Below are positions 22,771-58,252 of a stretch of DNA of 64,000 nt, piece by piece. Within the stretch, counting starts at the first letter, position 1, and each line of letters starts with the position of its first letter. The stretch is from contig JAWBYA010000003.1 of assembly GCA_038867615.1 (NCBI GenBank), positions 205,034 through 269,033 of the forward strand, written 5' to 3'. Origin of the DNA: Sulfolobales archaeon (lineage in GTDB: Archaea; Thermoproteota; Thermoprotei_A; Sulfolobales; AG1). The notes under the pieces are model-generated. The model had not been told where the DNA came from, did not search any database, and saw nothing but the letters and a program-made list of their open reading frames with translations. A program made the translations under genes and the position numbers.

Positions 22771-22823
22771 CTTTACCGCTTATTACCCGCCTCAACCATG
22801 CTTATCGTTGGAGGCGGTAGGGA

Positions 22824-23663
22824 ATAGAGGTTTATGTCGAGGTACTTCTACTCTTCCTAACAGGCTTTCTTGGAGGGCTTATAGGCGCCTTAACAGGGCT
22901 TGGCGGTAGCGCCATAGCTACGCCAATCCTTGTGAGCTATCTAGGCATCCCTCTCAGGGTAGCGATAGGGTCAGGAATAATAACCACAATAGCTAATAGT
23001 AGCACTAGCGGTGCAGGCTACCTAGCCAAGGGTATTGCTAACCTGAGGGTTGGGTATTCACTAGCTATAGCAACTATCCTCGGATCCATAGTTGGGGTTA
23101 TAATAAACATAAACATTCCAACAAAGATCCTCTATATAGTGTTCGGCGTTGTTCTAGCCATAGCACCGCTACCCGGCATTATATCTCGCAAGGATCAGAT
23201 TTTCGTCGTTAGACATACCAATCAGGATCCAATATCTATGAAGCTGGGCCTTAGGGGTAGCTATTACGATGAGAACAAGAAAGCCCGTATTGAATATGTA
23301 GGGTCTAGGTATCCCCTATCTTTCCTATCAATGATGGGTGCAGGGATCATCTCAGGCCTCCTCGGGATAGGTGCTGGCGCCTTCAAAGTCCTATCAATGG
23401 ACTATGTTATGGGGCTTCCATTCAAGGTATCAACAGCAACAAGCTCGTTCATGATAGGGTTAACAGCAACATCCGGCGGTATACAGTACCTAATACTCGG
23501 TTATGCTGACCCACTTCTAGTATCCCTACTAGTCCCTGGGGTCATACTAGGCTCATACGTATCATCAAGGATCCTTAACAAGCTTGCGAGCAAGACCCTT
23601 AGGTATATATTTACGGTCGTTGTATGGCTGCTGGCTATAGAGATGATATGGAGGGGTTTATAG
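22824..23663 (+). CDS. Sulfite exporter TauE/SafE (TSUP) family transporter; probable ATA start
   Basis: The frame is open 36 codons upstream of GTG 22932 and encodes the family N-terminal motif GFLGGLIGALTGLGG. An in-frame TAG lies at 22818-22820. ATA 22824 follows GGAGG. SGLLGIGAG and ATSSFMIG occur in the second half. Confidence 0.85.
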   Translation: MEVYVEVLLLFLTGFLGGLIGALTGLGGSAIATPILVSYLGIPLRVAIGSGIITTIANSSTSGAGYLAKGIANLRVGYSLAIATILGSIVGVIININIPTKILYIVFGVVLAIAPLPGIISRKDQIFVVRHTNQDPISMKLGLRGSYYDENKKARIEYVGSRYPLSFLSMMGAGIISGLLGIGAGAFKVLSMDYVMGLPFKVSTATSSFMIGLTATSGGIQYLILGYADPLLVSLLVPGVILGSYVSSRILNKLASKTLRYIFTVVVWLLAIEMIWRGL

Positions 23664-24044
23664 ATGGGAAGCCCCGGCTTGGCTGAGCGTACTGTGTATA
23701 GCATCTTAAAACTTTCTGTGTTAGCCTCGCTAGTAGTTATAGCAGTAGGTATTGTATGGATGTTTTACCATCTACACATTCAGGGCTTTCCGACAGATAA
23801 GTGGCTCACCTTTAATGGTACACGTATAAGTGACTTTGCACACATGATCTCTAGAATGGATCCTCGGGGGATTCTAGGGCTTTCAGCAGTTATCCTGATA
23901 CTAGGCGTGGTTCTAGCTATAGTCTCGGTGCTCATAACCTCTCTAAGAACGAGAGATAACAGTCTAGCGATCGTTTCAGCAGTACTTCTAATACTCATAC
24001 TGATCTCGACATCGATAGGTCTGATAATAAAGTCTAGAGGCTAA
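23664..24044 (+). CDS. DUF1634-like membrane protein (usual TauE partner)
   Basis: Three hydrophobic helices; abuts the TauE stop codon. Confidence 0.7.
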   Translation: MGSPGLAERTVYSILKLSVLASLVVIAVGIVWMFYHLHIQGFPTDKWLTFNGTRISDFAHMISRMDPRGILGLSAVILILGVVLAIVSVLITSLRTRDNSLAIVSAVLLILILISTSIGLIIKSRG

Positions 24045-24163
24045 CTTGCTCTTACGGATCGTTTTCTACAGATATTTCTGGAAAGCTTTAGAGATCTATT
24101 GGCTTAACTTCTATAGCAGGTGGTTTTAGTGTTTTTATCACATAGCAATACAATATTTCCCTA

Positions 24164-24544
24164 TCATCTCCTAGATATAGCGGTTCTCGAGGTTTTCATT
24201 GATATATAGCCTGTGATCGCGATCACGATAACCAGCATAACGCCAAGGACCATGTGGATGTCCGAAACGATTATTGAAGGGGAGAAATATATGTGCATTC
24301 CTAGGGCTACCTGAGAAAGTGTTAGCAGCAACGCTATGAGTGAGAATATCTTGAGGAGAGGGGATCCTTGAGATCTTATTGAGCTATAGGTTAGAAAGAC
24401 TATGAGGATCAGACCAACGATCCCGATCGTTGCGTGGAGATCCCTAAGGTAGTAGAGACCATAAAAAACCATAGCGAGACCCAATATATACTGTACAATA
24501 ACACCCACACCAACCAGGAGGCTGATCAGCCCAACAAGCCTCAT
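24164..24544 (-). CDS. Four-helix membrane protein of unknown function
   Basis: Four TM segments with repeated Q..LG and H..G motifs (QYILG..LHATIG; QVALG..IHMVLG). Confidence 0.7.
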   Translation of the reverse strand: MRLVGLISLLVGVGVIVQYILGLAMVFYGLYYLRDLHATIGIVGLILIVFLTYSSIRSQGSPLLKIFSLIALLLTLSQVALGMHIYFSPSIIVSDIHMVLGVMLVIVIAITGYISMKTSRTAISRR

Positions 24545-24619
24545 GGTATATACCAGAATGTAATAGTTGTAAAGGATAAAAACCCAAATGACAATAATAT
24601 ATATATGGCGGGGCAGTGC

Positions 24620-24696
24620 AGCGGGGTAGGGCAGCCAGGTAGCCCGCGGGGCTCATAACCCCGAGGTCGGTGGTTCAAATCCACCCCCCGCTACCA
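24620..24696 (+). tRNA. Initiator tRNA-Met(CAT), CCA encoded
   Basis: A1-T72 pair (AGCGGGG/CCCCGCT-ACCA), consecutive G-C pairs in the anticodon stem, CTCATAA loop. Confidence 0.96.
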
Positions 24697-24778
24697 ATAA
24701 ACCCCCGCCGCCAATGGTAGAAAACCTGGTTGCTTCCAAACAATTATAAATAATCCTCTTCTTCTAGATGGTTTGTAG

Positions 24779-25039
24779 GTGTTGCTCTTGGATCTCAGAG
24801 AGGCTCAGGATCTTATAGCAAAGCTATACCTTCAAAGGGATAGAGGGAGGGGCGTTTTCGCTACATTTACATGGTTTGTTGAGGAGGTGGGGGAACTTGC
24901 TGAGGCTATACTAGGAGGTGATAAAGACTCGATGGAAGAGGAAATAGCCGATGTGCTTGCATGGCTCCTCTCTATAGCTAATCTTGTTGATGTTGATGTT
25001 GAGAAGGCTTTCAAGAAAAAATATGTTAAAGGTAACTAG
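24779..25039 (+). CDS. MazG-like nucleotide pyrophosphohydrolase
   Basis: EEVGELAEA and EEIADVLAW motifs. Confidence 0.88.
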   Translation: MLLLDLREAQDLIAKLYLQRDRGRGVFATFTWFVEEVGELAEAILGGDKDSMEEEIADVLAWLLSIANLVDVDVEKAFKKKYVKGN

Positions 25040-25228
25040 AATTGCTTCTTTTCTAATAATATCTAGAGAATGTTGACAATATATAGGACGATCATGCCAC
25101 GTATTCCTGGATGTTGATGGGCTTGGTAGTTGTCCATAAGCAACAGGATCCATGGGTCTCCTGCTAGGTGGAAGCTTCCTGGTATGAGGGAAGAACAAAA
25201 ATATCAACAAGCATCCAATGATAAACAA

Positions 25229-26263
25229 CTAGTAGAAGCCTGGTGGTTTTACTCTAAGTACCTCTTTGTTAACTAATGTCGGAGGCTCTCTCCCAGCTGC
25301 GAATGCTAGTAGGTTCTCTACAGCTAGGAGGGCCATTGCGAGTCTTGTCTCTCTAGTTGCAGAGCCTATATGAGGTGTGAGCACCACGTTCTTGAACCTG
25401 GTTAGGGGGTGGTTTGGGTTGAGGGGTTCCTCCTCATAGACATCTAAACCAGCACCGGCTATCCAGCCTTTCTCTAGTGCTTCTATGAGTGCTTCTGTAT
25501 CTATTACAGCCCCTCTGGAGGTGTTTATAACTATAGCTCCTCTCTTTACCTTATTTAGCCTCTCTCTATTAATCATATGCCTGGTCTCTTTTGTTAGGGG
25601 GACATGTATTGAGATTATATCGCTGTTTGAGAGAAGATCATCGAGATCTCTATACTCGGCTCCAAGCTCTTTCTCCAAGTTCTCAGGAAGTCTTCTCCTA
25701 CTATAGTAGATGATCTTCATGTTAAAGGCTTTCGCTCTTCTGGCAACAGCAATACCTATACGCCCCATTCCTATTATACCTAAGGTCTTTCCATATAGCT
25801 CCATGCCAAGCATCATTTTGGGATGAAATGGGGTTCCTGTTCTCCACCATTCACCCCATCTAACGAAATGGTCTCCCTCGACGATTCTTCTAGCAGTAGC
25901 TAGTATGAGGGCTAGTGCTAGATCTGCTGTAGCTTCTGTAAGCACTCCTGGTGTGTTGGTTACATATATACCATGCTGGGTTGCGCACTCTACATCTATA
26001 TTATCATAGCCAACAGCCATGTTGGCTATGATCCTTATCTTGTGAGAAATACTTCTAATCATATCGCAATCAAATCTATCGATAGGCATGCTGAGCACGG
26101 CGTCGAATTCTGCAAGCTTTTTCCTCAGAAACTCGTAAGGCGGGTGCTGGTATCTATCCCAGACTTCATAATCATATACGCCCTCAAGCTTCTTGAGAGC
26201 TTCATCAAAGATCTCTCTGGTTATGTAGAGCCGAGGCTTTGACGAACCAGAACTCTTATTCAT
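25229..26263 (-). CDS. gyaR: Glyoxylate reductase / D-2-hydroxyacid dehydrogenase
   Basis: AVGYDNID, NTPGVLT, GMGRIG, NTSRG, LDVYEEEP and PHIGSAT motifs. Confidence 0.88.
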   Translation of the reverse strand: MNKSSGSSKPRLYITREIFDEALKKLEGVYDYEVWDRYQHPPYEFLRKKLAEFDAVLSMPIDRFDCDMIRSISHKIRIIANMAVGYDNIDVECATQHGIYVTNTPGVLTEATADLALALILATARRIVEGDHFVRWGEWWRTGTPFHPKMMLGMELYGKTLGIIGMGRIGIAVARRAKAFNMKIIYYSRRRLPENLEKELGAEYRDLDDLLSNSDIISIHVPLTKETRHMINRERLNKVKRGAIVINTSRGAVIDTEALIEALEKGWIAGAGLDVYEEEPLNPNHPLTRFKNVVLTPHIGSATRETRLAMALLAVENLLAFAAGREPPTLVNKEVLRVKPPGFY

Positions 26264-26395
26264 ATAACTTCCCAGGTATATAGATAACTGGCTGTCTATT
26301 AGCTATAAAGCTTTGTCTCTCGAATTGTGTTTTACATCACCAAGCCGTTGGTTCATTCATGCTATATAGTGCTGGGATGGTAATTATTAATGGAC

Positions 26396-26443
26396 GTGAT
26401 GTATACGCCATCGGCTGAGAGGTGATGTGATCCGCTCCCCTGA
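26396..26443 (+). ncRNA. Box C/D methylation guide sRNA
   Basis: Box C GTGATGT, guide ATACGCCATCGG, D' CTGA, C' GTGATGT, guide GATCCGCTCCC, D CTGA; canonical spacing and intergenic position. Confidence 0.85.
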
Positions 26444-26505
26444 TAGTATATGTAGACATTGAAACAGATCTACATTGTTTCGATAGGTAAAGCCTTAACG
26501 ACTCT

Positions 26506-29500
26506 CTAGCTCTTTCTAAGTACTAGGGTCTTGATCTCGTAGGGTTTGAGATGAAGCGAGACGCTCCCTGCGCTCGAGCTTAGGGGTCTGATCTCCCTCT
26601 CTAATAGATCTGATTCAAGTATTTCAAACATACCCCATAGGTCAAGCTTTACAGTTGTCTCTTTACCCTCAGCCTCATAGATCCTGGCTATTAGGCCGTC
26701 TCCCCGCTCCATTTTCTTCAATACCTCAAGAATCGCCGAGCCACCTTCGAGCTTCGCGAAGCTAACAGTAGGATTCTCTATGCGGGGCTTCGATATTCTG
26801 AGCGTTGTTGGAGGGCTCCACAGCTCGTAGGCTATCCTAGTAACACTACCTTCTATGTAGCCCCCTCTGTGGGGGTATATGTAATATATGGTTTCAAAAG
26901 GATCTAGGTCTCCGTAGGGGTTTGGGAAGAGCGATGTTTTTACAAGGGTTAACCCGATCCTATTATCCTTTGCGCTATACCCATGCTTTGTGAAGGAGAT
27001 AATAGCGATCCCCATATCTCCGTTTGATATATCAATCCACCTGAGGGCTGGTGCCTCGAACTTAGCGCTATCCCAGCTATCGGCATGCCTAGATCTCCTC
27101 TTTATGATTCCGAAGGGTATTTCGTAGTATACTTCGTTAAATTCGAAGGATGGCTCGATCCATGCTTTGAGGAGATATCCTCTCGAGCGCCAATGGATCC
27201 TAGATCTAATCTCAACCACCCTGGATCCTCTCCTGACACAGATCCTTTGCTCAACAACAGACCCTCTAGAACCCAACGTGACGCTGGCACAAGAGATCAT
27301 GGGGCTTGCTATAACCACCCTAGGCTTTTCAGCAATACCTAGCGGTGTGCTCGGTATTTCAAGAGAGCTCCTCTCTATATCCCATGCGTCCCAATCGCCT
27401 GGTTTATCTTGGTGCATCTCAAGCCTATGGGTTTTTATAGCTGTAGATCCTTTCTCTTTATCAAATACAGAGAAAGATCCGTCATTATATATCCTCACCT
27501 CTAGAGCCTCATTACCTATTACCACCAAGCCGTCTAGCTCTAAGGCATAAGTACCTGCGGCATTTATGAGGGGTTCTTGAGGGCTTGTCTGTTCTAATCT
27601 CTCAAGGAGTATGTAGCCTAGTGGGGGGATCTCAACCTCGATTAGAGAGGTGTTAACGAGATCCTGTCCAGGTACGCGATCACCTCCTAGAAGCCTATAG
27701 GATCCTCTTGGAAGCTCTACAAAGCTTCTCCTAGTCCACGGGAGATCGTTGAATATAGCTATATAGGCCCCCACAGGATCTTCAGATCCTGATATTGATG
27801 CCAGAGCATTTTTACGAACCCTCTCGCAAGAGGCTATCACATATTCAAGATCGCTGTAAGCTTCTCTATAGGCCTCGTAATTAGCCGATCCTGGGAGCAC
27901 GTCATGGAACTGGGCTGTTAATAGTCTCTCCCAAGCTTCTCTGAGATCCTCGTATGGATATTTAAACAAACCGAGAGAATATGCGATCGAGCTCCAGATC
28001 TCCGCAGATCTCAGACATGATTCGGCTTTATATACAAGCTCCTTGATCCTATGGTTAGTAGTATACGTACCCCTATGAATCTCCACATATAGCTCTCCCC
28101 TCCATTTGGGAGCCTTTTCCGCTATTGGTTTTATAATTGATAGGTAGCCCTCCTCATCGATAGTATCTATAATACTGGGAAGCCCGGGGAGGCGTTTTAT
28201 CCAGGAGATTCTTTCTAGCATGGCTAGGTTTGGTCCTCCTCCCCCGTCTCCCTCGCCATAGGCATGTATAGCAGGCCCTAGATCCTTCTGAGCATATCTA
28301 TCCCAGAGGTTTTTTATCTCCTCCGATGTTGCAGAGCCGTTGTAGGTTAGAATCAATACATGCACAGGGATCGTTGTCCCATCTACCCCCTCCCATTGGA
28401 AAAGATGATATGGGAATCTATTGGTATCGTTCCACATGATCTTATGGGTTACGAAAACCTCTATACCTGATTTTCTCAGTATCTGTGGTAGCTGGGCTGA
28501 GAAGCCGAAGGTGTCTGGAAGCCACCCGATCCTTGCTATCCTTCCAAACCTACTCTCGAAATAAAGCTGTCCTAGGAGGAATTGCCTTGCAAGGGATTCT
28601 CCAGTAACTATATTAGTGTCGCTCTCAACCCACATACCTCCTACCGGTATCCATATGGATCTCGAAACATATTCCTTGATCTTCTCCGCTAGATCTTTAT
28701 TCATCTTCTCCAGCCATGCGTAGTACTGAGCAGAGCTCTGGGCAAAAGTAAACCTATACCCATCATCAGCCAGTCTGGCTATGTTAGCGAAGGATCTCAG
28801 GATTTTTCTCTTGGTCTCACTATAGGGCCAGAGCCAAGCGGCATCTATGTGGCAGTGACCGAGCATTATGATCGAGCCTGTTTTTGGGTATTTCTTGGAT
28901 AACCTTTCAAGCTCCTCTTCAAACACTGCGTAGGTGTGATCAATGATCTTATCTGCATCGCCCAGCATAGGATCGTCTATATCGCTATAAACACCACTCA
29001 TTACCGGGATACCATATACGCTGGCTATATATCTCCTATCCCACCTACTCTCAATAACCCCCTTAAGATCTCCTAACAATATCTCGGCAGCGAATGCCTG
29101 TGTTATTGATGGCACCAGATCTATTCCCAAGGTGGCCTTCCAAAGAGCATCTAGGAGATCTTTTCTTAAACTCTTATCAGACACTCTTGCAAGCCTTAAA
29201 GCCTCAAGCATCCCTATCCCTAGTGAGAACCCCTTCCAGTTCACGGCAACAGCAACAGCGTGATCGAAGTGAAGGCTCCACGGGTTTTCGCCGAAAAGAC
29301 CTCTAGGGCTAGCCTCTATCGATACATGATGCTCGCCGCTAGGGATGTTTGCAATTCTATGTGCGTGGTCTATACCCTGGTGGATATTGTTATCGATCTT
29401 TAGCAATCCACCACCGCTTATAGAGATCTTTAGGAGCCATCTGGTGTTAGGAATATCGCTGAGGCTTACTCTGGTTGAGAAAGTATATGTATCATCCGGG

Positions 29501-29646
29501 TGAACCCTAGAGATATAGGGGAGCTCTATCTCTATACCTAATTGCTCATAGAACCATCTCTGCATAGGGATTGCTTTTCTCACACTCAATCCCAGCAGGT
29601 CTATTACTCTTCTCCTAATCTCGCTCTCTTTAGGGAGGCTTGTCAT
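26506..29646 (-). CDS. Alpha-mannosidase, glycoside hydrolase family 38
   Basis: GHCHIDAAWLW, GGMWVESD, WLPDTFG, GDGGGGP, HRGTYT and QFHDVLPGS motifs. Confidence 0.95.
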   Translation of the reverse strand: MTSLPKESEIRRRVIDLLGLSVRKAIPMQRWFYEQLGIEIELPYISRVHPDDTYTFSTRVSLSDIPNTRWLLKISISGGGLLKIDNNIHQGIDHAHRIANIPSGEHHVSIEASPRGLFGENPWSLHFDHAVAVAVNWKGFSLGIGMLEALRLARVSDKSLRKDLLDALWKATLGIDLVPSITQAFAAEILLGDLKGVIESRWDRRYIASVYGIPVMSGVYSDIDDPMLGDADKIIDHTYAVFEEELERLSKKYPKTGSIIMLGHCHIDAAWLWPYSETKRKILRSFANIARLADDGYRFTFAQSSAQYYAWLEKMNKDLAEKIKEYVSRSIWIPVGGMWVESDTNIVTGESLARQFLLGQLYFESRFGRIARIGWLPDTFGFSAQLPQILRKSGIEVFVTHKIMWNDTNRFPYHLFQWEGVDGTTIPVHVLILTYNGSATSEEIKNLWDRYAQKDLGPAIHAYGEGDGGGGPNLAMLERISWIKRLPGLPSIIDTIDEEGYLSIIKPIAEKAPKWRGELYVEIHRGTYTTNHRIKELVYKAESCLRSAEIWSSIAYSLGLFKYPYEDLREAWERLLTAQFHDVLPGSANYEAYREAYSDLEYVIASCERVRKNALASISGSEDPVGAYIAIFNDLPWTRRSFVELPRGSYRLLGGDRVPGQDLVNTSLIEVEIPPLGYILLERLEQTSPQEPLINAAGTYALELDGLVVIGNEALEVRIYNDGSFSVFDKEKGSTAIKTHRLEMHQDKPGDWDAWDIERSSLEIPSTPLGIAEKPRVVIASPMISCASVTLGSRGSVVEQRICVRRGSRVVEIRSRIHWRSRGYLLKAWIEPSFEFNEVYYEIPFGIIKRRSRHADSWDSAKFEAPALRWIDISNGDMGIAIISFTKHGYSAKDNRIGLTLVKTSLFPNPYGDLDPFETIYYIYPHRGGYIEGSVTRIAYELWSPPTTLRISKPRIENPTVSFAKLEGGSAILEVLKKMERGDGLIARIYEAEGKETTVKLDLWGMFEILESDLLEREIRPLSSSAGSVSLHLKPYEIKTLVLRKS

Positions 29647-29760
29647 CAGTTGGTAATAATTTTAGGGAATATTATAGGCTTTATGTTATATGTAAAGATC
29701 CTGGGGTGAAGGCTCTGTATAATAAATAGGGCTCTATGGTAGAATTCTATGGTGGTTTAG

Positions 29761-30096
29761 ATGGAGTTCTCAAACTTAGAGAGTGCGGTTAAACAGGAAC
29801 CTTCCAAAGGGATTAGGCGGTGGATTATGGTTAGTGGTGATAAGACCATGATGGTGTTGATAGAGCTCGATGAGGGATCTGTTATACCCTTGCATAACCA
29901 CCATAACGAGCAGACAGGATATGTTCTCAAAGGAAGGATAGAGTTCAGAACACCAAGTGGCACCTACACATTTAGTGAGGGGACAGCATATCTACTAAGA
30001 TCCAATGAGCCTCACGAGGTGCGCAACCCAGGCCCCGGGAAAGCCGTTGTAATCGAGGTCTTCTCACCCCCCAGGGAAGATTTCCTGAAGAGATGA
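29761..30096 (+). CDS. Cupin domain protein
   Basis: PLHNHHNEQ..YVLKG, NEPH and FSPPRED motifs. Confidence 0.88.
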   Translation: MEFSNLESAVKQEPSKGIRRWIMVSGDKTMMVLIELDEGSVIPLHNHHNEQTGYVLKGRIEFRTPSGTYTFSEGTAYLLRSNEPHEVRNPGPGKAVVIEVFSPPREDFLKR

Positions 30097-30176
30097 TCGC
30101 ATAGATAGAGATCATATCAACGATCTATTAGTATTTCTATATAGTGATCCCGTTTGGACAATCTATGTCAATAGAT

Positions 30177-30710
30177 TTAAATCGTTTTCCGCTTGACTAT
30201 CCTGTTGTTAAGCACAACGCTATTAGGTATATAGATCGTCTCTCCATTCTCTGTTATCCCCACTGTATACATGAGGCTTATCTCGACAATTGTTAATGGC
30301 TCCCAACCTCCTATAACAACCTTTTCACCTATTCTGAAAGGCCTTGTTATAAGTATTGTAAGACCTGCAATGGCTTGGCCCAGAACCTGTTGAGTTGCTA
30401 ATCCAACCACGACGCCAAGAAAACCGCCTATAGCCAGCCCGGCCTGAGGGTTGGTTAGGATAGTTGCTGTTCCTGGTAACAGAACACCTATCCCCAGGAT
30501 CCTTATAGTACTCCTAATACTTGTGGCTGATATGCTGTCGGAGGCTACCAGGGCTACTCTGTAGGCGGCTCTTGATAGTAGTTCTACAATAGCATAGCCG
30601 CCTGCTATTATTATAGATGCGTCTACAAGGATTCCTATATCCGGCGGTAGGCTTGACGACAATGCCGTGATCAGGTTTCTAGATATATACCAGATGGCGA
30701 TCGAGATCAA
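30177..30710 (-). CDS. Small mechanosensitive channel (MscS family); true start may be further upstream
   Basis: VVGLATQQVLGQAIAG, RPFRIGE and IPNS motifs. Confidence 0.85.
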   Translation of the reverse strand: MISIAIWYISRNLITALSSSLPPDIGILVDASIIIAGGYAIVELLSRAAYRVALVASDSISATSIRSTIRILGIGVLLPGTATILTNPQAGLAIGGFLGVVVGLATQQVLGQAIAGLTILITRPFRIGEKVVIGGWEPLTIVEISLMYTVGITENGETIYIPNSVVLNNRIVKRKTI

Positions 30711-31259
30711 GATCGTGGCGATAATACCGACAACAAGCCTAGAAACACTCCTACCGCTAAAACAGCCACCGAGATAAATAATATAGGATAATTTTTAGGT
30801 TAGTTGTGATAAGATCCTTCTGATAGCGGATCATTATCGCTAGAATGTGGGAGAGGCCATCTAGTCACTATACCTGGCTATAATATCGACATTTGTAGTT
30901 ATACATATAGCGTGGAAGACGATCCTCAAACCTCTCTCTACCTATCGTTTAGGGATTCGTTCTTAAGGCGTTAGAAGTGTGGCGGTGATATTGAACATTA
31001 TACCGGGTCTTGTTAGGAGCAGGGGGCATAAGCAGGCCTATATTGCTAACAAGGTTCTCGTTTACTCAGAGTTCCTGACAGGCTTTGTTGGTATATATAT
31101 GGGTATTGTTAGGTTAGGGAGATGCCCTTGCCCTAGTCGTTATAAGGATCCTTTCAACTATATAGATCTCGCATGTGCTTAGCATATGTATTGCAGCAAG
31201 TCTATCAGATCAATGATTGGATCTAATTGCTGTGGCAAGACTTGGGGCTTATAAGTGAG

Positions 31260-31348: not shown

Positions 31349-31417
31349 TCCCACCTAGAATCAAGTAGTAGAAGCTTATAGGGTTTTCCAATTAAAAAAG
31401 ATCCATGGGGATGTGGG

Positions 31418-31960
31418 TTATTTGCTTATCACTCCCAGAGCTCCTACTATGGGTTGTGATATAAAGCCTATTGACTGACTTATCACTGTTGATGTTGCGA
31501 AAAACGCTCCGAAGAGCATTGCTGCGAGGGCTACATTGCCTCTTGATAGCTCCTGCGCTATCGATGGCGCCTCTACCTTTCCTGCAAGCCTTCTAACTAT
31601 GAAGCTATATATAGCATTCTGAGCCAGGGTTATGGCGAATATTGCTAGCGGGAGGCCTATGAAGAGCTGTACAAAGCCTCCAATTAGGGCTTCAAGCCAT
31701 CCAGCACCGCCTAGAAAGGCCCTTGCTATCCCAGCCGCGCCCTGGCCTATAACATTTGCAACAGCTATAAGGATCCCAGCTATATATACTCCAACAGCAG
31801 TGTTTCCTTTCCTCAGTTCTTCAAGCTCGTCCAGACCCTTAGTTAGCTTGTTGAGAATGTTGAGCGCCAGAGTTATGCTGAAAAGGGCTAGGCCAACGCC
31901 GACAGCTATCTGTACGATCGCTAGCAGTACGCTTACTATAGCATCGATCCACGCGGCCGT
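31418..31960 (-). CDS. DUF350 (UPF0719/YjfL-like) duplicated membrane protein; probable ACG start; absent from the ORF track
   Basis: The reading frame is open for 181 codons: (M)AAWIDAIVSVLLAIVQIAVG..ELRKGNTAVGVYIAG..ELSRGNVALAAMLFG..K*. GGGGAG lies 6 nt before ACG, and there is no in-frame ATG/GTG/TTG near the 5' end. Confidence 0.8.
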   Translation of the reverse strand, partial: TAAWIDAIVSVLLAIVQIAVGVGLALFSITLALNILNKLTKGLDELEELRKGNTAVGVYIAGILIAVANVIGQGAAGIARAFLGGAGWLEALIGGFVQLFIGLPLAIFAITLAQNAIYSFIVRRLAGKVEAPSIAQELSRGNVALAAMLFGAFFATSTVISQSIGFISQPIVGALGVISK

Positions 31961-32075
31961 AGTTGGCTCCCCAAATACTAGATAAACAGGTATTTTCCTT
32001 ATAGGCAGAGATCTGCTTAGTATTTTTCGAAGCTACAGGGCACAAAAGCTGTTGCCAGATATGGAAGCACGAGAT

Positions 32076-32969
32076 CTATTGCTGCTCAGGTTTTCTCAAT
32101 ATATAGTAATAGGTTATACCGCTCTTCGCCTTAGTGCCTATGATCCCCATACTGATCATTTTATTCAGCCTTCTATACAGAGTGGTTTTTGGTAAATTAG
32201 TGTGGCTCATTATATCTCTGGCTGAGGCTTCTCCCAACTTCTCGATAACCCTTAATATCTCCTTATCTGTTGAGTCTAGGTATTCAGGGCCTTCACCCTT
32301 ACGTCTTCTAATCAATATTAGCAGAGAGATAGCCAAACCAGCACCAACTATCACGCCTGCTAGTAATAAGGGTGATTCAAATACAGGTGCCGGGGTTGCG
32401 GGGGCTATGCTCTGAGTAGCTGTCGTTGTCTGTGTAACTCCTGCTGCAGGTGTCTCTACACTAGGTATGGCTCCGGTCGTTATTTGGGCTAATGTGTATT
32501 CAAGATCCCATCTAGACCCCTTTGCAAGCCCTATTATAACATATTCACCGAATATACTAAACGATGTGATGTTGGTTGGTACACTGATTAGCACAATGTT
32601 TCTATGAACTCTAATCGTTAGGTTATCAGCCCACTGTGGATATTTTATAGAAGTCCTTATGATTCCCTCTGAGACATTTATAGATCCTATATAGCTTATA
32701 TCGATTTTCGAGATACCCCGTGGCTTGAGGATCGCGATAGTGTTATTTGGGAGGGGCTGTATGACAACATCTACTGGTGCCACAGAGATAGATCCTGAGA
32801 TCGGTTGGATCGGTAGGTCTATGGATGTTATCGAATCGCTAGAAGGATCCATATATATTGTTAGGAAGACATCTATAGTTCCATCACCGCTGATCACTAT
32901 GAGAACTCTATTAGCCTCTTGGGAATAGACTATTAAGGTAAAGAAGGCTAAGAGCATTAATAGAGACAT
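32076..32969 (-). CDS. Membrane-anchored winged-HTH protein: signal peptide, extracellular beta domain, Thr/Pro linker, TM helix, cytoplasmic HTH
   Basis: TM LLLAGVIVGAGLAISLLILI followed by RRRK; C-terminal LDSTDKEIL..LPKTTLYRRLNKM..G. Confidence 0.8.
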   Translation of the reverse strand: MSLLMLLAFFTLIVYSQEANRVLIVISGDGTIDVFLTIYMDPSSDSITSIDLPIQPISGSISVAPVDVVIQPLPNNTIAILKPRGISKIDISYIGSINVSEGIIRTSIKYPQWADNLTIRVHRNIVLISVPTNITSFSIFGEYVIIGLAKGSRWDLEYTLAQITTGAIPSVETPAAGVTQTTTATQSIAPATPAPVFESPLLLAGVIVGAGLAISLLILIRRRKGEGPEYLDSTDKEILRVIEKLGEASARDIMSHTNLPKTTLYRRLNKMISMGIIGTKAKSGITYYYILRKPEQQ

Positions 32970-33055
32970 AGCTACCAGCAGGATCCTTTTCAGGTAGTAG
33001 CTGAACGCGGCTCACCGCTATTTAGTGACGATAGGCGGGTAAAAACTTGCTTCTC

Positions 33056-37361: not shown

Positions 37362-37377
37362 TTAGTCAGTCCCTCGT

Positions 37378-47533: not shown

Positions 47534-47546
47534 AAGAGGATCTTTA

Positions 47547-50136: not shown

Positions 50137-50151
50137 ATAGTCCCACTCCTC

Positions 50152-51126: not shown

Positions 51127-51147
51127 CCCGTCTGGGGTTAGGCAGCG

Positions 51148-51855
51148 TTATGAAGATACTATCCTAACCTCTATCGGTTTAGACTGGGGCTGCTGTGGAG
51201 TCTCTATCTTGGGCTGTGTGGTTTGAACATCTATTGGGATCTTTTGTGGAACTATAGCCTCGTTCTCAAGCTTCTCTAGGAGCTCTAGGTGTTTCTCTAT
51301 ATCGCTTTTCTCATCAATAGCCCTAGCTTTAGAGCTTCTCAGCCCCTCTATGCTTGTTTTGAACCTCTGTTCACCGATCTCGCCCGAGGTGTAGCCTAGC
51401 TTGAGGTGGTTTATAGCCTTATCTATATGTAGGATCTCGTCCTCAAGCTCTCCAAGCCTTTTTCTGAGAGTGTTTCTAACGCTCTTGGCTTTCTCTTTAA
51501 GTCTGGATAGAGTTGCCTCGAGACTCTTTTTCATCTCCTCATATGCCTGAGATCCTATCTCTTTCGATGAGAATAGTTCCTCAAGAGCCCTGGCTCTCTT
51601 TCTAGTCCTATCTAGTTGCTGCTCAACCCTTATAGCCTCTACCCTCCACTCAGGGAGCACTATCAGGGTTTCTGGAGAGACGTTAACTCTTTCTGATGGT
51701 ATGTATGATAAATATCCATCTTCCCTCATAACCTCTATTCCAGTAACACTTCCATCTACATCCGAATAGATCGATGATAAGACGCCTAAGATTCTACCAT
51801 AAGGATCTCTGACCTTGGATCCAAGATGTTTCTCGATCTCATCGATTGATACCAT
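51148..51855 (-). CDS. cdvA: Cell division protein CdvA
   Basis: PRC-barrel KVRDPYGRILG..SDVDG, LPEW, coiled coil and C-terminal IEVRIV motif. Confidence 0.93.
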   Translation of the reverse strand: MVSIDEIEKHLGSKVRDPYGRILGVLSSIYSDVDGSVTGIEVMREDGYLSYIPSERVNVSPETLIVLPEWRVEAIRVEQQLDRTRKRARALEELFSSKEIGSQAYEEMKKSLEATLSRLKEKAKSVRNTLRKRLGELEDEILHIDKAINHLKLGYTSGEIGEQRFKTSIEGLRSSKARAIDEKSDIEKHLELLEKLENEAIVPQKIPIDVQTTQPKIETPQQPQSKPIEVRIVSS

Positions 51856-52039
51856 GTACCCTAACCTCGTAGGAAATGCTTATACTACGATAGGTATATA
51901 AGCACTATGGTAGAACACCCATAAGTGCCAGGTGACATGGGGAGAAGACTAGCTGGTGTTCAGTGATACCTATGTAATATCTTATATTATCAGAAAATGG
52001 GAGATGGTGTCCTACCACTATCTTTTGGTACTAACTATC

Positions 52040-53062
52040 TCAGCCAGCTCGGCTCAAGATCTCCTCGGCTAGATCTGTGATCGATACGTTCTTGTATCCA
52101 AGCATATTGAAAGCCCTCTCAAGGTTTGTAAAACAAATAGGACACATTACTATTACCCTATCACTCCCAGTAGATGCTAACTCCTTAGCTCTTTTTGTGG
52201 CGATTCTTAAGGCTAGCTTTGGAGATATTCCTTCTATAGGTCCCCCGCAACAGAGCGTCTTGATCCCGCTGTTCTTGGGCTCTATGTAGCGTATATTTTT
52301 AGCAGAATTTCTAGTAGCAACATATAGTCCTAGCTTTCTAACAATATAGCATGAATCATGGATAACAGGCAGCTTAACCATAGCACTGCTAGCGCTTGTA
52401 GTGGAGGCCTTGTTGCTTGTTATATCGTCTTTCACTCCGATCAGTTCTAGGTAGTGTTTCACCTCTATTTCGAAGCCTTCTACATAGCGTGGATAGATCT
52501 CTCTTAGCACATATGTTGTATGGGGATCCACCGTTATGACTCTCTTAACACCTTCTTTAACAAGCTGTTTATATACACTAGCTGCGTGTTGTGCGAAGAG
52601 ATCTTCGAGACCCAGCTCGTAGAGATATACCCCAGAGTAGAGGTCTTTCTCATATAGATATCCGAAATCAACACCGCTGGCCTTCAGAAGCTTAGTAATA
52701 GATCTCAGGGTTCTAGAAGAGTAATCCAGGATCTTTTTATCTGGTTTGACGACTTTGGATACGAACCATGAGAAGAGCTTAGGGGATATGCTTGTAAAGA
52801 GTCTCGTGATCCTTATTCCCAAGTCTCCAAACCTCTCATACATATCTACAAGAGAGTCCGCATATGCCATTAGCTGGTATAGACACCCAGTATATAGGAC
52901 TGTTTCTCCACCCCTTCTAAGCCCCAGATCCTTAGCCCATTCATAGCAAGCACTGCTGGGAGCGGCTAGGGGGTTGCCATAGATCCTCGATATAGTCTCC
53001 ACAATAGCTAGCTGTGTGGGGACTATATCTGTGCCATGGTTACGGCTCTTCATGCTAGGCAC
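52040..53062 (-). CDS. CCG-domain Fe-S protein (HdrD/GlpC-like)
   Basis: YTGC, VDPH, HDSC, CCGGP and CPIC motifs. Confidence 0.85.
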   Translation of the reverse strand: MPSMKSRNHGTDIVPTQLAIVETISRIYGNPLAAPSSACYEWAKDLGLRRGGETVLYTGCLYQLMAYADSLVDMYERFGDLGIRITRLFTSISPKLFSWFVSKVVKPDKKILDYSSRTLRSITKLLKASGVDFGYLYEKDLYSGVYLYELGLEDLFAQHAASVYKQLVKEGVKRVITVDPHTTYVLREIYPRYVEGFEIEVKHYLELIGVKDDITSNKASTTSASSAMVKLPVIHDSCYIVRKLGLYVATRNSAKNIRYIEPKNSGIKTLCCGGPIEGISPKLALRIATKRAKELASTGSDRVIVMCPICFTNLERAFNMLGYKNVSITDLAEEILSRAG

Positions 53063-54911
53063 CTGCTTCTCTCAGCATTTCTGACAGATCCTTCACCTTT
53101 ATATCCTTATCGAGCCCTAGGTTTCTTAACGCATCCTCTAGCATCGCTATGCAGAAGGGACACTCAGCCACTATTGTGTTAACCCCGAGCGATGCTAGCT
53201 CCTCAACCCTTTCCACAGAGATCCTTTTCTTCTCCGGGACATCGTACCAGTAGTTAGATCCTCCGGCTCCGCAGCAGAACGTTCTATAACCGCTCCTCCG
53301 CGCCTCTTTATAGGTCTCGCTAGAGATCCTCACGATTCTTCTCGGCTCCTCCTCGATCCTGTTTATCCTTGCTATGTAGCATGAGTCATGTATAGTAGCC
53401 GCCCCACTGATCTTCGATCTGGGCTTTATCCTCCCCTCCTCAACAAGCTTTGAGAGAAGCTGTGAGTGGTGGAGGATCTCGACATCGAATGTGGGATCTA
53501 GCTCTTTATATTCGTTCTTAAATGTGTTGAAGCCGTGGGGGCATATGGTTACGATCCTTTTGACACCAAGCCTCTTAAAAAGATCTATGTTTCTTAGCGC
53601 TATATCCTGGAACCTGCTCTCCTCGCCAAGTCTTCTCAAGGGGTCTCCGCAGCACATCTCAAGATCGCCTAGTACAGCGACCCTGATCCCCGCTTCTTTC
53701 AGAACCTCTATGAAGGCCTGTATAGCTTTTCTAGCCCTATCATCGAAGCTACCCATACAGCCTACCCATAGGAGGTAGTCATACTCGCCCGCCTCTTCAG
53801 CTAGCTGGACGCCTAGTTTTCTGATCCAGTCGTGTCTTCCATAGTTAGGGGCTCCCATGCTATTACCGTTCTGAGCTATGCTAGATATGAGGGAGATCTT
53901 TTTCTGATCCATTTTCGAATTGAACACGAGCCATCTCCTCACATCAACGATCAGGGGTACGTGGTCAACGCCCATAGGGCATATCTCAACACAGGCGCCA
54001 CATGTAGTGCAGGCCCAGAACGTATCATCCTGGAGAAGATCTACAACCTGTTTCCCAGGATCCATCCTGACACCTTGCCTTGTTACCAGTACAACCTTTC
54101 TGGGGGATAGGGGTCTTCCCACAGCATACGCTGGGCACACGCTATCGCATAGGCCGCAATTGGCGCATGAGTCGAGATTCACTAGCCTCTCAGTCTCTAT
54201 GTCTGTGAGGAAACCCACACCAACTTTGATCTTATCGATCGTCTCTTCACTCAGCTCACTGAGTTTAAAGGGTGTGGGGAGCTTTCCAGGGTTCCTCTGC
54301 TTATTTATAAAGACATTCAGGGCTGAGGCTACGTTATACCAGAACCTCGTGCGGGGTGTTAAGAGAATTATTATTGGTGATATGGCTAGTGCTAGGGCTA
54401 TTGCTTCCCTGTAGTATAGGCTTGACAAGGCTACTCCTCCCAGTATTGGGATTACTGCTAGGTAGGCCAGGTCTCGCACTCCAAGTTCTATGAGCCAGCT
54501 CCTCTTACCCTCTCTGGGTCTCATATTTACAAGGATAACAACCCCGGATACCAGTGCTACGGCTCCGATTACCGCTATGAGTGTGTGAAGAGGTCTGAGG
54601 ATAGGGCCTACTTCCAGGAGTAGCAGGATTGCGTATAGTAGTGAGAGCACCATTATTAGCATGTATGAGTATAGGGCCACGCCTCTAAATACTCCCTCTA
54701 TAGCTGGTTCGCCGCCCCATCTGAAGAACCTACCCTGAAGTACTACTTCCATAAGGAATCTATTCCACGTATTGCTATCAGCCATGCTTATATAGGAAAA
54801 GATCTTCCTGAGACCGCCGTATTCTTTAAGCCTATGTGTTATGCCTAGTATAGAGGCGATCAAAAGGATCAGGTAAATAGAGATCGAAGCGATCCACACG
54901 GCGTTATTCAT
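53055..54911 (-). CDS. Membrane-anchored Fe-S oxidoreductase (HdrD/FadF-like; 2x[4Fe-4S] plus CCG domains)
   Basis: N-terminal TM helices; CANCGLCDSVCP, CTTCGACVEICP, CCGD and CCGAGG motifs. Confidence 0.9.
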   Translation of the reverse strand: MNNAVWIASISIYLILLIASILGITHRLKEYGGLRKIFSYISMADSNTWNRFLMEVVLQGRFFRWGGEPAIEGVFRGVALYSYMLIMVLSLLYAILLLLEVGPILRPLHTLIAVIGAVALVSGVVILVNMRPREGKRSWLIELGVRDLAYLAVIPILGGVALSSLYYREAIALALAISPIIILLTPRTRFWYNVASALNVFINKQRNPGKLPTPFKLSELSEETIDKIKVGVGFLTDIETERLVNLDSCANCGLCDSVCPAYAVGRPLSPRKVVLVTRQGVRMDPGKQVVDLLQDDTFWACTTCGACVEICPMGVDHVPLIVDVRRWLVFNSKMDQKKISLISSIAQNGNSMGAPNYGRHDWIRKLGVQLAEEAGEYDYLLWVGCMGSFDDRARKAIQAFIEVLKEAGIRVAVLGDLEMCCGDPLRRLGEESRFQDIALRNIDLFKRLGVKRIVTICPHGFNTFKNEYKELDPTFDVEILHHSQLLSKLVEEGRIKPRSKISGAATIHDSCYIARINRIEEEPRRIVRISSETYKEARRSGYRTFCCGAGGSNYWYDVPEKKRISVERVEELASLGVNTIVAECPFCIAMLEDALRNLGLDKDIKVKDLSEMLREAGA

Positions 54912-54957
54912 TATTATTCCCCTTATTAGTATGTTAGGAGGCTAGATAACTGAGAAG

Positions 54958-55317
54958 ATGCTTAGCAGTCTTAGAGAGCTTGTGTGGAGATCCACGTGGG
55001 ATAGCGAGTGTTTCAATGCACTGAGAGAAATGTGTATCAGGTCATGTGGGGAAGACTATCCACATCCCCCACTCTTTAAGGATCTACCAGATAGCCTGCC
55101 ACATAGATTCTCAGCAATACTCTCCATGGTTTCCGAGGCGATGATCTGTGGACTTAGGGAGGGTACTAAGGAGCTTGGGGATTATCTAGAGAAGCTTAGG
55201 GAGGAGTTTCTCAAACTATACTCAGATCTATTGCTTGAGGAGAGGGAGTATGGGTTGAGATTGAGACCCCACAGGATCGAGGATCTATTGAGGATCTTGG
55301 CAGAGAAGCAGGGATAG
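54958..55317 (+). CDS. Hypothetical protein
   Basis: 119-aa ORF with ATG start, divergent from the Fe-S pair; no motif recognised. Confidence 0.6.
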   Translation: MLSSLRELVWRSTWDSECFNALREMCIRSCGEDYPHPPLFKDLPDSLPHRFSAILSMVSEAMICGLREGTKELGDYLEKLREEFLKLYSDLLLEEREYGLRLRPHRIEDLLRILAEKQG

Positions 55318-55359
55318 GCTTATAATAGGCCTTGTTATATAGAGCTATTGGGTAGTAAA

Positions 55360-55869
55360 ATGCCGCTTAGACCGGCTAGATGCTATACACAGCAAAAGAA
55401 GCCGGCATATACTAGGAAGGAGTATATTCAGGGAGTACCCCCGCCAAAAATAACTAAATATACTATGGGTAACCCTAAGGGTGAGTATAAATATGCTGTG
55501 AAGCTTATAGCAACAACTAGGTGTGTGATAAGGCACAACGCATTAGAGGCTGCACGAATAGCAGCCCATAGATATCTATCGGCAGCAGTTGGTGAGGATA
55601 ACTTCTTCTTAGTGGTTAAGAAATACCCGCACCACGTGCTCAGGGAGAATAAGATGCTCGCCTTTGCTGGAGCTGACAGGCTCCAAGACGGTATGAGACT
55701 AGCTTTTGGAAAACCAATCGGTACTGCGGCTATTGCGATGCCTGGCGATGACGTTATGGTTGTCTATGTTAGTAATGAGAAGCATATAGAAGCTGCTAAG
55801 GAAGCCCTGATTAGGGCTGAGACAAAGCTCCCCGAGGCATATAGAGTAGAGGTAGTTAAGCTAAATTGA
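55360..55869 (+). CDS. rpl10e: 50S ribosomal protein L10e (uL16)
   Basis: [24 protein letters not shown] and [16 protein letters not shown] motifs. Confidence 0.97.
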
Positions 55870-55880
55870 TCGAGATCTTT

Positions 55881-55935
55881 CTGTGATGAAGCCGACATAG
55901 GTTGATTGATGATATAGGGTCGATTATCTGATCAG
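55881..55935 (+). ncRNA. Box C/D methylation guide sRNA
   Basis: Box C GTGATGA, guide AGCCGACATAGG, D' TTGA, C' TGATGA, guide TATAGGGTCGATTAT, D CTGA; short CTG/CAG terminal stem; just downstream of rpl10e. Confidence 0.8.
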
Positions 55936-56183
55936 TCATAAGTTATTCAACAACTCGTTCGTCACCCCAACTCTTCTATAGATCGACACTGCGGATCCTA
56001 GATCGTAGCTGGTGCAACGATGTGAGACTCCTATCTACAAAGGGATCATCATACTAGTGGTTTAGCGTTCGCTCCCAGCCTACCCAAAGCTAATAAGACC
56101 AACGCATTACTAATCAAATATATGAGTATTAATAAGAAAACAACCCGGCGTGATACCCGATCTCAATAGCTGCGGCTTTAGTG

Positions 56184-56900
56184 TTACTTCTGATCCTTTT
56201 CAGCATATATGAGAAGTCTTCTGAGAAGAAGTATTAGGTATGAGAGCTCCATTTTTGTGGGATTTGATCTATACACTATTCTCTCAAGACTCTTTATAGC
56301 AGAGATCTTCTGTCTCTCATCATTCATCGTTAGCTCGGAAGCCATTTCTATATACTTCATGGCTATTCTGAAATCCTCCTGCGAGGGGCGTTCAACTATA
56401 TCGATAGAGGTCCTGCTGGAGAACTTCCTAAAGATCTCGTAAAGTACTATAGCCACAGCATGAGATAGGTTCAGCGTTGGATATACATGGCTTGCACCTA
56501 TGTGGAGATATATGTTGCACTTCTCAAGCTCGCTTCTAGTTAGCCCTGTGCTTTCTCTGCCAAACACTATTGAGACGAGCCCTTTACCTTCTATCATATC
56601 CACAAAATCCTTTAGCTCTACAGGCTGTCTAAGCGGGTCGCTCTTCTCTGTAACTATTGAGGATGTGCATGCAGCTATATCAGAGCCTTCTAAGGCTTTT
56701 TCAAGATCATCGACTATGATGGCCTTTTCAAGATATTCCCTCCCCCCAGCTGCGAAGTTAATAGCATCACTGTTTATCTCAGCCTTTGGTTTGACTAGAT
56801 ATAGCTCGTCTACCTCGAAGTTTTTACAGAGACGAGCCACCATCCCGAGGTTTATTGATCCCTCAGTACCTACTAGTATAACTCTTATACGGGGTTTGAT
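56184..56900 (-). CDS. trmJ: TrmJ/SPOUT tRNA 2'-O-methyltransferase; probable non-canonical start (ATC 56900)
   Basis: FGRESTGL and YPTLNLSHAV motifs. Conserved motif I (IRVILVGTEGSINLGMVAR) begins upstream of the first ATG at 56843 and is bounded by an in-frame TGA. Confidence 0.88.
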   Translation of the reverse strand: MKPRIRVILVGTEGSINLGMVARLCKNFEVDELYLVKPKAEINSDAINFAAGGREYLEKAIIVDDLEKALEGSDIAACTSSIVTEKSDPLRQPVELKDFVDMIEGKGLVSIVFGRESTGLTRSELEKCNIYLHIGASHVYPTLNLSHAVAIVLYEIFRKFSSRTSIDIVERPSQEDFRIAMKYIEMASELTMNDERQKISAIKSLERIVYRSNPTKMELSYLILLLRRLLIYAEKDQK

Positions 56901-56902
56901 CT

Positions 56903-58252
56903 CTACTCAGCCTCTATATCGGCTCTTTTAACCCCTCTTAGGAGTGGAAGTCTTCTCCTCTTAGCCTCTCTAAGGATCCTCTGCAGGTTCTCATAATAGC
57001 TTAGAAGCTCTTTCACCTCCTCAACGCTTGTTCCCGAGCCTATGGCTATTCTCCTTATCCTGCTCTTATCAAGGATCTTCGGGTTCTGGAGTTCCTCGTA
57101 GGTCATGGAGTCCATTATATTTATCCATTTCCTCATTTTCTTCTCACTGATCTTAGCCTCCTCATCACCTATCACCAACCCCGATAATCCCGGGATCATC
57201 TGAAGGATCTTTGCTAAGGGACCCATTTTTAAAATACTCTTCAGCTGGACATACACGTCGATGAGAGTCATCCTGCCAGTAGCTATAGCGTTGCTCAGCC
57301 TCTTCTCAAGCTCCTTGCTCTCCTCAAGAGCCCTGAACTTCTCTATAATACCCTCTATATCTCCAAGCCCTAGTAGCCTACTTGTGAATCTCCTTGGATT
57401 GAATACCTCGATCTCGTCGATCTTCTCCCCAGTCCCTATAAACTTGATCATAGCACCTGTAGCTGCTACAGCCGATAAGGCTCCCCCTCCCCTAGCACTC
57501 CCATCAAGCTTTGTTATAACTATAGATCCTATTGGTACTGTTTCGTGGAACCTCTTGGCGAGATCATATGCTCTCTGACCTATAGTAGCGTCGAGCACTA
57601 GTATAACCTCGTCGGGTTTTATCACCTCGGCTATGCTTTTCATCTCGTCGAGCAAGGCCTGCTCAGATCCGTAGCCATGCCTCCCAGCCGTATCGACTAT
57701 GATTATATTGCACCCCTTCTTAATCATAGCCTCAACACCTCTCATCGCAATACCGACAGGATCCTGGGATCCTGGCTCACCATATACCGGTACGCCGATC
57801 ATTTCTCCAAGCTGTGCTAGCTGGTCATAGGCGCCCGGCCTATAAGTATCGGCAGCAACCATGCATGGCCTATACCCCTGCTTCTTATACAGATAAGAGA
57901 TCTTTGCACACGTGGTTGTCTTACCAGACCCCTGAACCCCGACCATAAGCACCACGTAGGGCTGTTTTGGTGGTATAATACTTGGCGATCTATCGCCTCC
58001 GAAGAGCTCGGCTAGGTTGTCGTAGACTATTTTTATGAACCAATCCCTCCTCGAGAAGCCTGGAGGGGGTTCCGAGGATCTAGCATGCTCCCTGATCTTA
58101 TTGCTAAGCTCGTAGACAAGCTTTACATTAACATCAGCCTGGATCAGTGTTTTCTGTAATTCCTTTATAAATGACTCAACAGCCTGCTCGTAAGGGTCTG
58201 AGCCTTTGACGAACCTAACAACAGCTTCCTTGATCCTTTCGAGACCCTTCAA
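56903..58252 (-). CDS. srp54: Signal recognition particle protein SRP54
   Basis: GVQGSGKTT, DTAGRH, TKLDG and M-domain SRIRRIAIGSG motifs. Confidence 0.97.
   Translation of the reverse strand: MKGLERIKEAVVRFVKGSDPYEQAVESFIKELQKTLIQADVNVKLVYELSNKIREHARSSEPPPGFSRRDWFIKIVYDNLAELFGGDRSPSIIPPKQPYVVLMVGVQGSGKTTTCAKISYLYKKQGYRPCMVAADTYRPGAYDQLAQLGEMIGVPVYGEPGSQDPVGIAMRGVEAMIKKGCNIIIVDTAGRHGYGSEQALLDEMKSIAEVIKPDEVILVLDATIGQRAYDLAKRFHETVPIGSIVITKLDGSARGGGALSAVAATGAMIKFIGTGEKIDEIEVFNPRRFTSRLLGLGDIEGIIEKFRALEESKELEKRLSNAIATGRMTLIDVYVQLKSILKMGPLAKILQMIPGLSGLVIGDEEAKISEKKMRKWINIMDSMTYEELQNPKILDKSRIRRIAIGSGTSVEEVKELLSYYENLQRILREAKRRRLPLLRGVKRADIEAE

Follow-up and report, generated by a model that had tools for sequence, protein, structure and literature searches.

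Can a conserved gene without an ATG, GTG or TTG codon in front of its conserved domain be a working gene, and at which codon would its translation begin? The question is raised by genes for a TauE/TSUP-type transporter (tauE), a DUF350 membrane protein and a TrmJ-like methyltransferase (trmJ) in a stretch of 64,000 nucleotides (nt) from a Sulfolobales archaeon (hereafter the window; positions 205034-269033 of contig C3 of genome G000, a 2.22-Mb draft in 28 contigs with ~46% G+C). We consider it probable, at about three chances in four, that these are working genes in which the ordinary initiator tRNA would initiate at near-cognate codons. Their canonical starts are missing, the layout is conserved across species, the 5' stretches are under purifying selection and have the codon usage of coding sequence, and near-cognate codons are enriched at the position set by the Shine-Dalgarno (SD) motif.

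The metagenome runs in which G000 occurs are hot-spring samples, and no RNA run is listed for it. The organism belongs to a mostly uncultured family (labeled f1) and to a genus labeled g1; its nearest named relative is Desulfurococcaceae archaeon AG1, whose TrmJ is 97% identical, and it is not an Aeropyrum. Together with G000, the genomes G001 to G005 make up six genomes of the genus (over trmJ, G003 is 97% and G002 92% identical to G000). G010 and G012 represent the sister genus, and the control, G021, is a one-contig, cultured-type genome from another family of the same order. The stop-to-stop frames of the window were listed and scanned against Pfam; coordinates are given in Table 1, in which the low coordinate of an open reading frame (ORF) range includes the stop codon.

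Conserved window genes lacking a canonical start

In tauE the Pfam domain covers residues 11-275, and the first canonical codon (that is, ATG, GTG or TTG) is a GTG at codon offset 37, inside the domain. A preliminary description of the window, made from its letters alone, had proposed the ATA at 22824-22826 as the start. This codon is kept in all six genomes of the genus, in G005 immediately 3' of a TAG; its aligned counterpart in G012 and G010 of the sister genus is an ATG, and a GFLGG motif follows 13 residues downstream. Its register distance of 14 nt from the SD-like motif is among the two commonest (12 and 14) at the 104 canonical starts of G000 that are led by an SD motif. The six residues 3' of the ATA, I-[ED]-x-Y-[IVT]-E, are retained across the genus despite many base changes, and over codons 1-36 the ratios of synonymous to non-synonymous changes are 7/0, 10/1, and 19/9.

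The DUF350 gene was seen only within the genus (6 of 21 genomes). Its Pfam domain spans residues 37-188 and the first canonical codon lies at offset 171; called with only ATG, GTG or TTG, the protein would shrink to 33 residues. Canonical codons make up 4.8% of coding codons, and the chance that 144-171 codons follow one another without any of them is ~1e-3 or less. The 5' codons read ACG GCC GCG TGG in G000 and ACG ACC ACG TGG in G002, both of which are without any canonical start, and ACG ACT ATG TGG in G003 and ATG ACT AGC TGG in G004, where an ATG is present. The ACG, which had been proposed as the start, is matched in G004 by a homologous ATG and occurs in four of the five genus genomes read at this place. 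Over 144 codons, synonymous and non-synonymous changes stand at 25/6 and 19/5. In G003 (contig C5, locus L038) a direct duplication of ~24 nt (TCT TAT ATT TGG GGG CCG ACC AC-) lies just 5' of the DUF350 ATG; it is absent from G000 and G002.

The trmJ frame opens immediately after a TGA, and its first canonical ATG is found at offset 21, within the conserved INLGMVARL motif. The GTA at 56904-56906, the first codon of the frame, overlaps the TAG stop of srp54 (GTAG). Both ATC and GTA had been suggested as the start; the ATC at 56898-56900, at a register distance of 15 nt from a GAGG motif, would most likely serve. Three of the 20 loci read (G000, G003, and G002) share the start-less layout, in which the ATC is invariant and G002 has ATA for GTA, and the remaining 17 have an ATG, GTG or TTG a few codons 5' of the conserved strand. 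A GTG stands one codon 5' of the ATC position in G004, G001, and G005. Synonymous and non-synonymous changes 5' of the ATG number 2/0 and 3/2. As had been described, all three genes are intact, with conserved domains that start 5' of the first canonical codon; the proposed ATA, ACG, and ATC fit the homology.

Genome-wide census and translation signals

A census of homologous starts was made with G000, G010 (1.40 Mb) and G021 (1.2 of 1.39 Mb). All stop-to-stop frames of at least 70 residues were translated, reciprocal best hits were taken and shadow frames removed. A gene was flagged when its alignment extended 5' of the first canonical codon by 10 columns or more and this extension had a raw BLOSUM62 score of 25 or higher. 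In G000, 35 of 967 conserved genes (3.6%) were flagged against G010 and 17 of 564 (3.0%) against the control. The counts for G010 were 31/967 (3.2%) against G000 and 16/494 (3.2%) against the control, and those for the control 7/564 (1.2%) and 6/494 (1.2%) against G000 and G010, respectively. As the preliminary description had supposed, genes of this kind (start-less genes) are a recurrent feature of the genome, neither a local oddity nor an error, and they extend further than that description had seen. The excess of G000 and of the sister genus over the control is ~2.5-fold (Fisher p 0.06 and 0.05; a pooled test, p 0.004, counts the control twice). Of the 17 and 16 genes flagged against the control, the two genera have only one orthologue in common, and the affected gene set therefore seems to turn over quickly.

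On the score criterion alone the union list for G000 held 45 genes, of which seven were removed by eye to leave 38: three looked like shadow or rRNA-like frames (C4+17999, C4+226504, C7+32241), in three the apparent homology was only a translated conserved SD motif (C2-208006, C5-135071, C6+13418) and one was dubious (C1-563687). In-frame SD motifs (GGAGGTGAT) yield highly identical pseudo-matches (EGGDR, RRW) 5' of true starts, e.g., at 208006-208480 on the minus strand of contig C2 of G000, and naive counts at short extension lengths are inflated as a result. An ungapped table of the codons at the position of the partner's start was discarded for its noise, 38 of the A cases being without a partner start; its top codons were CTG (6) and TGG (4), ATA being one of two at 3.

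The codon usage of the flagged stretches is that of coding sequence. For 36 of them the median log-odds per codon is 0.227, compared with 0.222 for true N-termini (p 0.95) and -0.035 for in-frame non-coding upstream stretches (p 1e-9).

The 285 confident canonical starts of G000 comprise 149 ATG, 91 TTG, and 45 GTG. An SD motif, taken as at least 5 nt of GGAGGTGATC, precedes 104 of these, with the register distance peaking at 12-14, and 16 of the 38 start-less genes; the other 22 are without such a motif. These similar shares do not bear out the proposal that initiation in start-less genes is specifically SD-driven. We also applied a blind rule: starting from the longest SD motif, the only codon considered was the in-frame one 13-15 nt away. 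The codon so defined is near-cognate in 7 of 14 cases (ATA 3, ACG 2, CTG 1, ATC 1) against a background of 12.2% at 6018 internal SD-like sites (p 6e-4), an enrichment of near-cognate codons at the SD-defined position. The 16S 3' end of the sister genus and of the control is the usual GGATCACCTCC; the 16S gene of G000 (G000:C9:47261-48317) is cut by the contig end after ~1020 nt, so that its anti-SD tail falls outside the assembly.

Several core genes outside the window are affected, and in all six genes in which this was tabulated the Pfam domain begins before the first canonical codon (Table 1). In the gene for aIF2-alpha, all six genomes of the genus read TAA AGA TCC TGG GGT GAG ... CTG, in which neither GGGGTGAG nor the CTG varies; the spacer before the CTG does (GTTTTT, ATC or AGC), and later codons differ synonymously. 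Between 25 and 101 codons pass without a canonical one across these genomes, and in G010 a GTG ATG stands two to three codons 5' of the same leucine. For uS3, the match tables of the genus list open frames of similar length with matches from residue 1 or 2. For Rrp4, matches begin at residue 1 in G003 and G002 and at residues 2, 6, and 8 in G001, G004, and G005; a CTG directly 3' of a stop opens the Rrp4 frame of G000, with GAGGTGA upstream.

Table 1. Location and character of the features discussed. Unprefixed coordinates are positions in the window; prefixed ones give genome and contig.
Feature	Location	Strand	Conserved domain or signal	First canonical codon	Remarks
GGAGG SD-like motif	22810..22814	+			first G 14 nt upstream of tauE ATA
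tauE/TSUP membrane transporter	ORF 22821..23663, 280 aa; gene from proposed ATA 22824..23663	+	Pfam TauE, 2.3e-44		end includes stop
Initiator tRNA-Met	24620..24696	+	anticodon CAU		A1:U72; G29-G31:C39-C41
Short MscS-like gene	30177..30794	-	Pfam MS_channel_2nd		TTT 30759-30761 where G002 and G003 have TTG
DUF350 membrane protein	ORF 31418..32032, 204 aa; gene 31418..31960	-	Pfam DUF350, 1.1e-12		proposed start ACG 31958-31960
Secreted/membrane winged-helix protein (wHTH)	ORF 32076..33011; candidate gene 32076..32993	-	Pfam HTH_24		
trmJ-like SpoU methyltransferase	56184..56906, 240 aa	-	Pfam SpoU_methylase, 6e-26, residues 7-156		
srp54	56903..58252	-			TTG start; TAG stop overlaps first codon of trmJ frame
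aIF1	G000:C2:139663-139881	-	SUI1 profile, 74.2 bits		ATG start; conserved core motifs
aIF2-alpha	G000:C2:5438-6265	+	S1, residues 16-84	63	63 codons without ATG, GTG or TTG
uS3	G000:C2:227541-228248	-	KH, residues 25-98	91	SD GGAGGTG; uL22 TAG stop ends 1 nt before TTC
Acidic ribosomal stalk protein			domain from residue 18	23	
Rrp4			N-domain, residues 16-67	81	
MoeA			residues 14-179	66	
Orc1/Cdc6-type ATPase			AAA_16 from residue 44	64	

Two further window genes had been put forward as weaker cases, and G000 does lack the TTG or GTG of its relatives at both. However, the MscS paralog is probably a decaying gene, and its G003 ortholog is broken across three frames. The wHTH gene has GCG in G000 at the position of the GTG of G003 and an ATG (32967-32969) at offset 14; in G002 the first canonical codon comes only at offset 20. 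A CTG at offset 6 (32991-32993) is kept in G000, G003, and G002 and begins a CTG-AAA-AGG eight codons 5' of the ATG. Translation from this CTG would give M-K-R followed by a hydrophobic stretch, a better signal peptide than that from the ATG, and whether CTG or ATG would be the start is ambiguous. The TTG starts assigned to top6A, top6B, cdvC, srp54, and eIF5A are the first canonical codon in all five. The sister-genus alignment begins within five residues after the TTG in the first four, in agreement with the assignment, and extends 13 low-scoring residues 5' of the TTG in eIF5A, where it disagrees.

In addition, an HTH-ThiN fusion at 20392-21390 of the window (minus strand) aligns with the sister genus from residue 2 and has its first canonical codon, a TTG, at offset 13. 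Its ortholog in G010 is aligned from residue 42 with the first canonical codon at 60, and the fusion may be a further start-less case common to both genera. Two Rfam tRNA genes of ~102 nt on the plus strand (12548-12650 and 14100-14201), probably intron-bearing, were missed by ARAGORN at its defaults.

Proposed initiation at near-cognate codons and its alternatives

Under near-cognate initiation, translation of these working genes would begin at AUA, AUC, AUU, CUG or ACG, read by the normal initiator Met-tRNA. The start codon would lie at the usual distance behind an SD motif in some genes and would have no such motif before it in others, and ~3-4% of the conserved genes in the family would have exchanged ATG, GTG or TTG for near-cognate codons. 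We infer that ribosomes initiate with methionine at these codons and that expression is sufficient. Near-cognate codons align with the ATG of the partner in tauE (ATA), Rrp4 (CTG), MoeA (ATT) and a nucleotidyltransferase gene (CTG). No second credible initiator-type tRNA was found among the 50 predicted tRNAs of G000; the other match with A1:U72 has a predicted intron of ~150 nt and looks spurious.

Several observations weigh against this reading. In four of the six genus genomes (G002, G005, G001, and G004) tauE also has a GTG 6-9 codons 3' of the ATA from which the Pfam domain would be retained, and only G000 and G003 strictly require the ATA, because GTA replaces the downstream GTG there. 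The uS3 gene of G000 has no near-cognate codon at a usable distance from its SD motif: the codon 14 nt from the GGAGGTG is TTC in G000, ATA in G010 and TTG in the control. This TTC, the GTA of trmJ and the TTT of MscS each differ from AUG at two places, and near-cognate pairing does not account for them. The GTA and the TTT stand at positions where relatives carry GTG or TTG, and the uS3 TTC is set against a first canonical TTG after the SD motif. A conserved SD motif may pass for a short protein match, and for that reason, as shadow ORFs or as dubious, 7 of the 45 flagged genes had to be dropped by eye. Lastly, the control is a single genome, covered over most of its length, and the excess reaches only borderline significance against it.

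The preliminary description had gone further and proposed that the fidelity of initiation is relaxed in the lineage, and had pointed to aIF1, aIF1A, aIF2 and the 16S anti-SD as places to look. A family-wide, less stringent start selection through changed initiation machinery, with near-cognate codons drifting in freely, is in our view a tentative possibility. The rates in G000 and the sister genus are indeed above that of the control. The near-absence of flagged orthologues common to the two genera suggests rapid turnover rather than a few ancient regulated cases, and because the affected genes differ between the sister genera, start-codon turnover appears frequent and weakly selected. Two further observations point the same way: the gene for aIF2-alpha would itself be CTG-started in the genus, and aIF1 of the genus, with SUI1 scores of 74-75.5 bits, is among the lowest-scoring of the order (most genomes reach 80-87, and three others are as low or lower). 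However, aIF1, which was found in 39 of 41 genomes, is present in G000 with an ATG start, and neither its loss nor a change of its conserved core was found there. The sole credible initiator tRNA is canonical, with A1:U72 and three G:C pairs. No cause of relaxed fidelity was found in either. Nor is the trait peculiar to this lineage: the sister genus has the same rate as G000, and the control family also has cases that look real, such as a PP-loop ATPase with a CTG 5' of its SGGKDS motif and an ATT immediately after GGTGA. Lineage-specific lowered fidelity is therefore possible and only partly supported, given a difference in rate that is itself borderline.

Two side observations belong here. 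The aIF1 of the genus has a loop that is one residue shorter and a short acidic C-terminal tail. Frames 1172610, 782641, and 693414 of G021:C1 (script coordinates) are examples of apparent CTG or ATT starts in the control, where the genes with such apparent starts are the PP-loop ATPase, a CDP-alcohol phosphatidyltransferase-like gene and an SAH hydrolase.

A second alternative is termination-reinitiation, in which the ribosome would restart at the codon adjoining an upstream stop without a strict codon-anticodon check. This would suit the GTA of trmJ, which overlaps the srp54 stop, the uS3 TTC, 1 nt beyond the uL22 TAG, and the Rrp4 CTG, which directly follows a stop in its own frame with GAGGTGA upstream. 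Conversely, upstream-gene junctions are not enriched: a same-strand gene ends within -40 to +12 nt of 8 of the 38 start-less genes and of 73 of the 285 canonical starts (p 0.69), and tauE and DUF350 have no junction at all. Coupling as a general mechanism was rejected on these counts, and we consider this account unlikely. A programmed uL22-to-uS3 frameshift was likewise rejected, as the two frames are related differently in the control and the sequence at the site is not a slippery one.

It is decidedly unlikely that stringency is lowered family-wide in such a manner that the CTG of aIF2-alpha, invariant in six species, would act as a sensor coupling the supply of this factor to the stringency, in the way of the infC AUU for IF3 in bacteria, and that codons matching AUG at the central U alone (GUA in trmJ, UUC in uS3, UUU in MscS) would serve as starts where relatives have GUG or UUG. 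If this were true, such starts would constitute an initiation mode undescribed in any domain.

That the start-less genes are young, untranslated pseudogenes left by loss of their starts is very unlikely, although single cases lend the idea some color. The MscS gene of G000 has TTT for the TTG of its relatives, with a frameshifted ortholog in G003, and the loss of the DUF350 ATG is recent, since G003, 93% identical, keeps it, and the DUF350 gene of G001 looks broken. Against this, essential genes are among those affected (aIF2-alpha, uS3, the stalk protein), synonymous changes dominate in tauE, trmJ, and DUF350, the frames stay open across species and their codon usage is coding-like.

Assembly or sequencing error, or RNA editing that restores a canonical start, is scarcely credible. 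In its favor, the genome was drafted in 28 contigs from a hot-spring metagenome, and a C-to-U edit would turn the ACG into AUG. However, sister-species assemblies and contigs from other studies and runs carry the same letters, as the preliminary description had anticipated in setting sequencing error aside, and editing of more than one kind would be required for the five codon types. At the tauE start, contigs of metagenome runs from elsewhere match G000 letter for letter (X7 and X9, possibly one data set), as does X7 at the DUF350 start, and contig X6 differs from G000 at only four places, all downstream of the DUF350 start.

Comparison with known systems

In the literature that we searched, no conserved archaeal gene was described as having AUA, AUC, AUU, CUG or ACG for its only start, and a 2020 review of archaeal initiation, in its account of start codons, gives AUG, GUG, and UUG only (PMC7531240). 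If ~3% of genes start in this way, gene callers restricted to the three codons, which would truncate or miss such genes as the preliminary description had warned, systematically curtail or lose proteins when applied to archaeal genomes from metagenomes, and calls of completeness and function suffer. It would also follow that the stringency of aIF1 and aIF2 can be tested on natural substrates, including a CTG-started initiation-factor gene.

Heavy use of non-ATG starts is familiar from Aeropyrum pernix, a related hyperthermophilic crenarchaeon with 52% TTG, 28% ATG, and 20% GTG (Yamazaki 2006, quoted in PMC5911459 and PMC2830850), and is also seen in the canonical starts of G000. The figures quoted for Aeropyrum concern the three accepted codons only, and the passages quoting them report none beyond these. 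An experimental hint of archaeal near-cognate initiation comes from ribosome profiling of Haloferax volcanii, where ~30% of putative alternative sites are near-cognate (PMC7261190). Those are alternative or extra sites, set aside by the authors as possible false positives, and not the sole starts of conserved genes.

In Saccharolobus, aIF1 has been reported to disfavor non-canonical starts (PMC6237735). The eukaryotic initiation at CUG and ACG under the stringency of eIF1 resembles the situation proposed here in that aIF1 and eIF1, aIF2 and eIF2, and the initiator Met-tRNA are homologous. It differs in that there is no scanning in the archaeal case, SD motifs or short leaders taking its place, and in that no change of aIF1 was found.

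Further parallels are bacterial. In Deinococcus, N-terminal proteomics found ATC (dnaA) and CTG (rpsL) among the starts of four genes (PMC2830850); there too, as that account has it, essential replication and ribosomal genes begin at ATC or CTG, the codons are conserved among relatives and the genes had formerly been mis-annotated. The Deinococcus cases are four bacterial genes with peptide proof, as opposed to the ~3% of conserved genes, read from sequence, that would be affected here. Many bacteria start infC at AUU or AUA, and pcnB starts at AUU (PMC2830850). These are described as regulated genes, numbering one or two in a genome, for which feedback by IF3 is proven, in contrast to the dozens of genes, served by the archaeal aIF1/aIF2 machinery and known from their sequences, that are considered here. 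In both settings a near-cognate codon behind an SD motif appears to be kept by selection and an initiation-factor gene is affected, infC in the bacteria and, with its putative CTG start, the gene for aIF2-alpha here.

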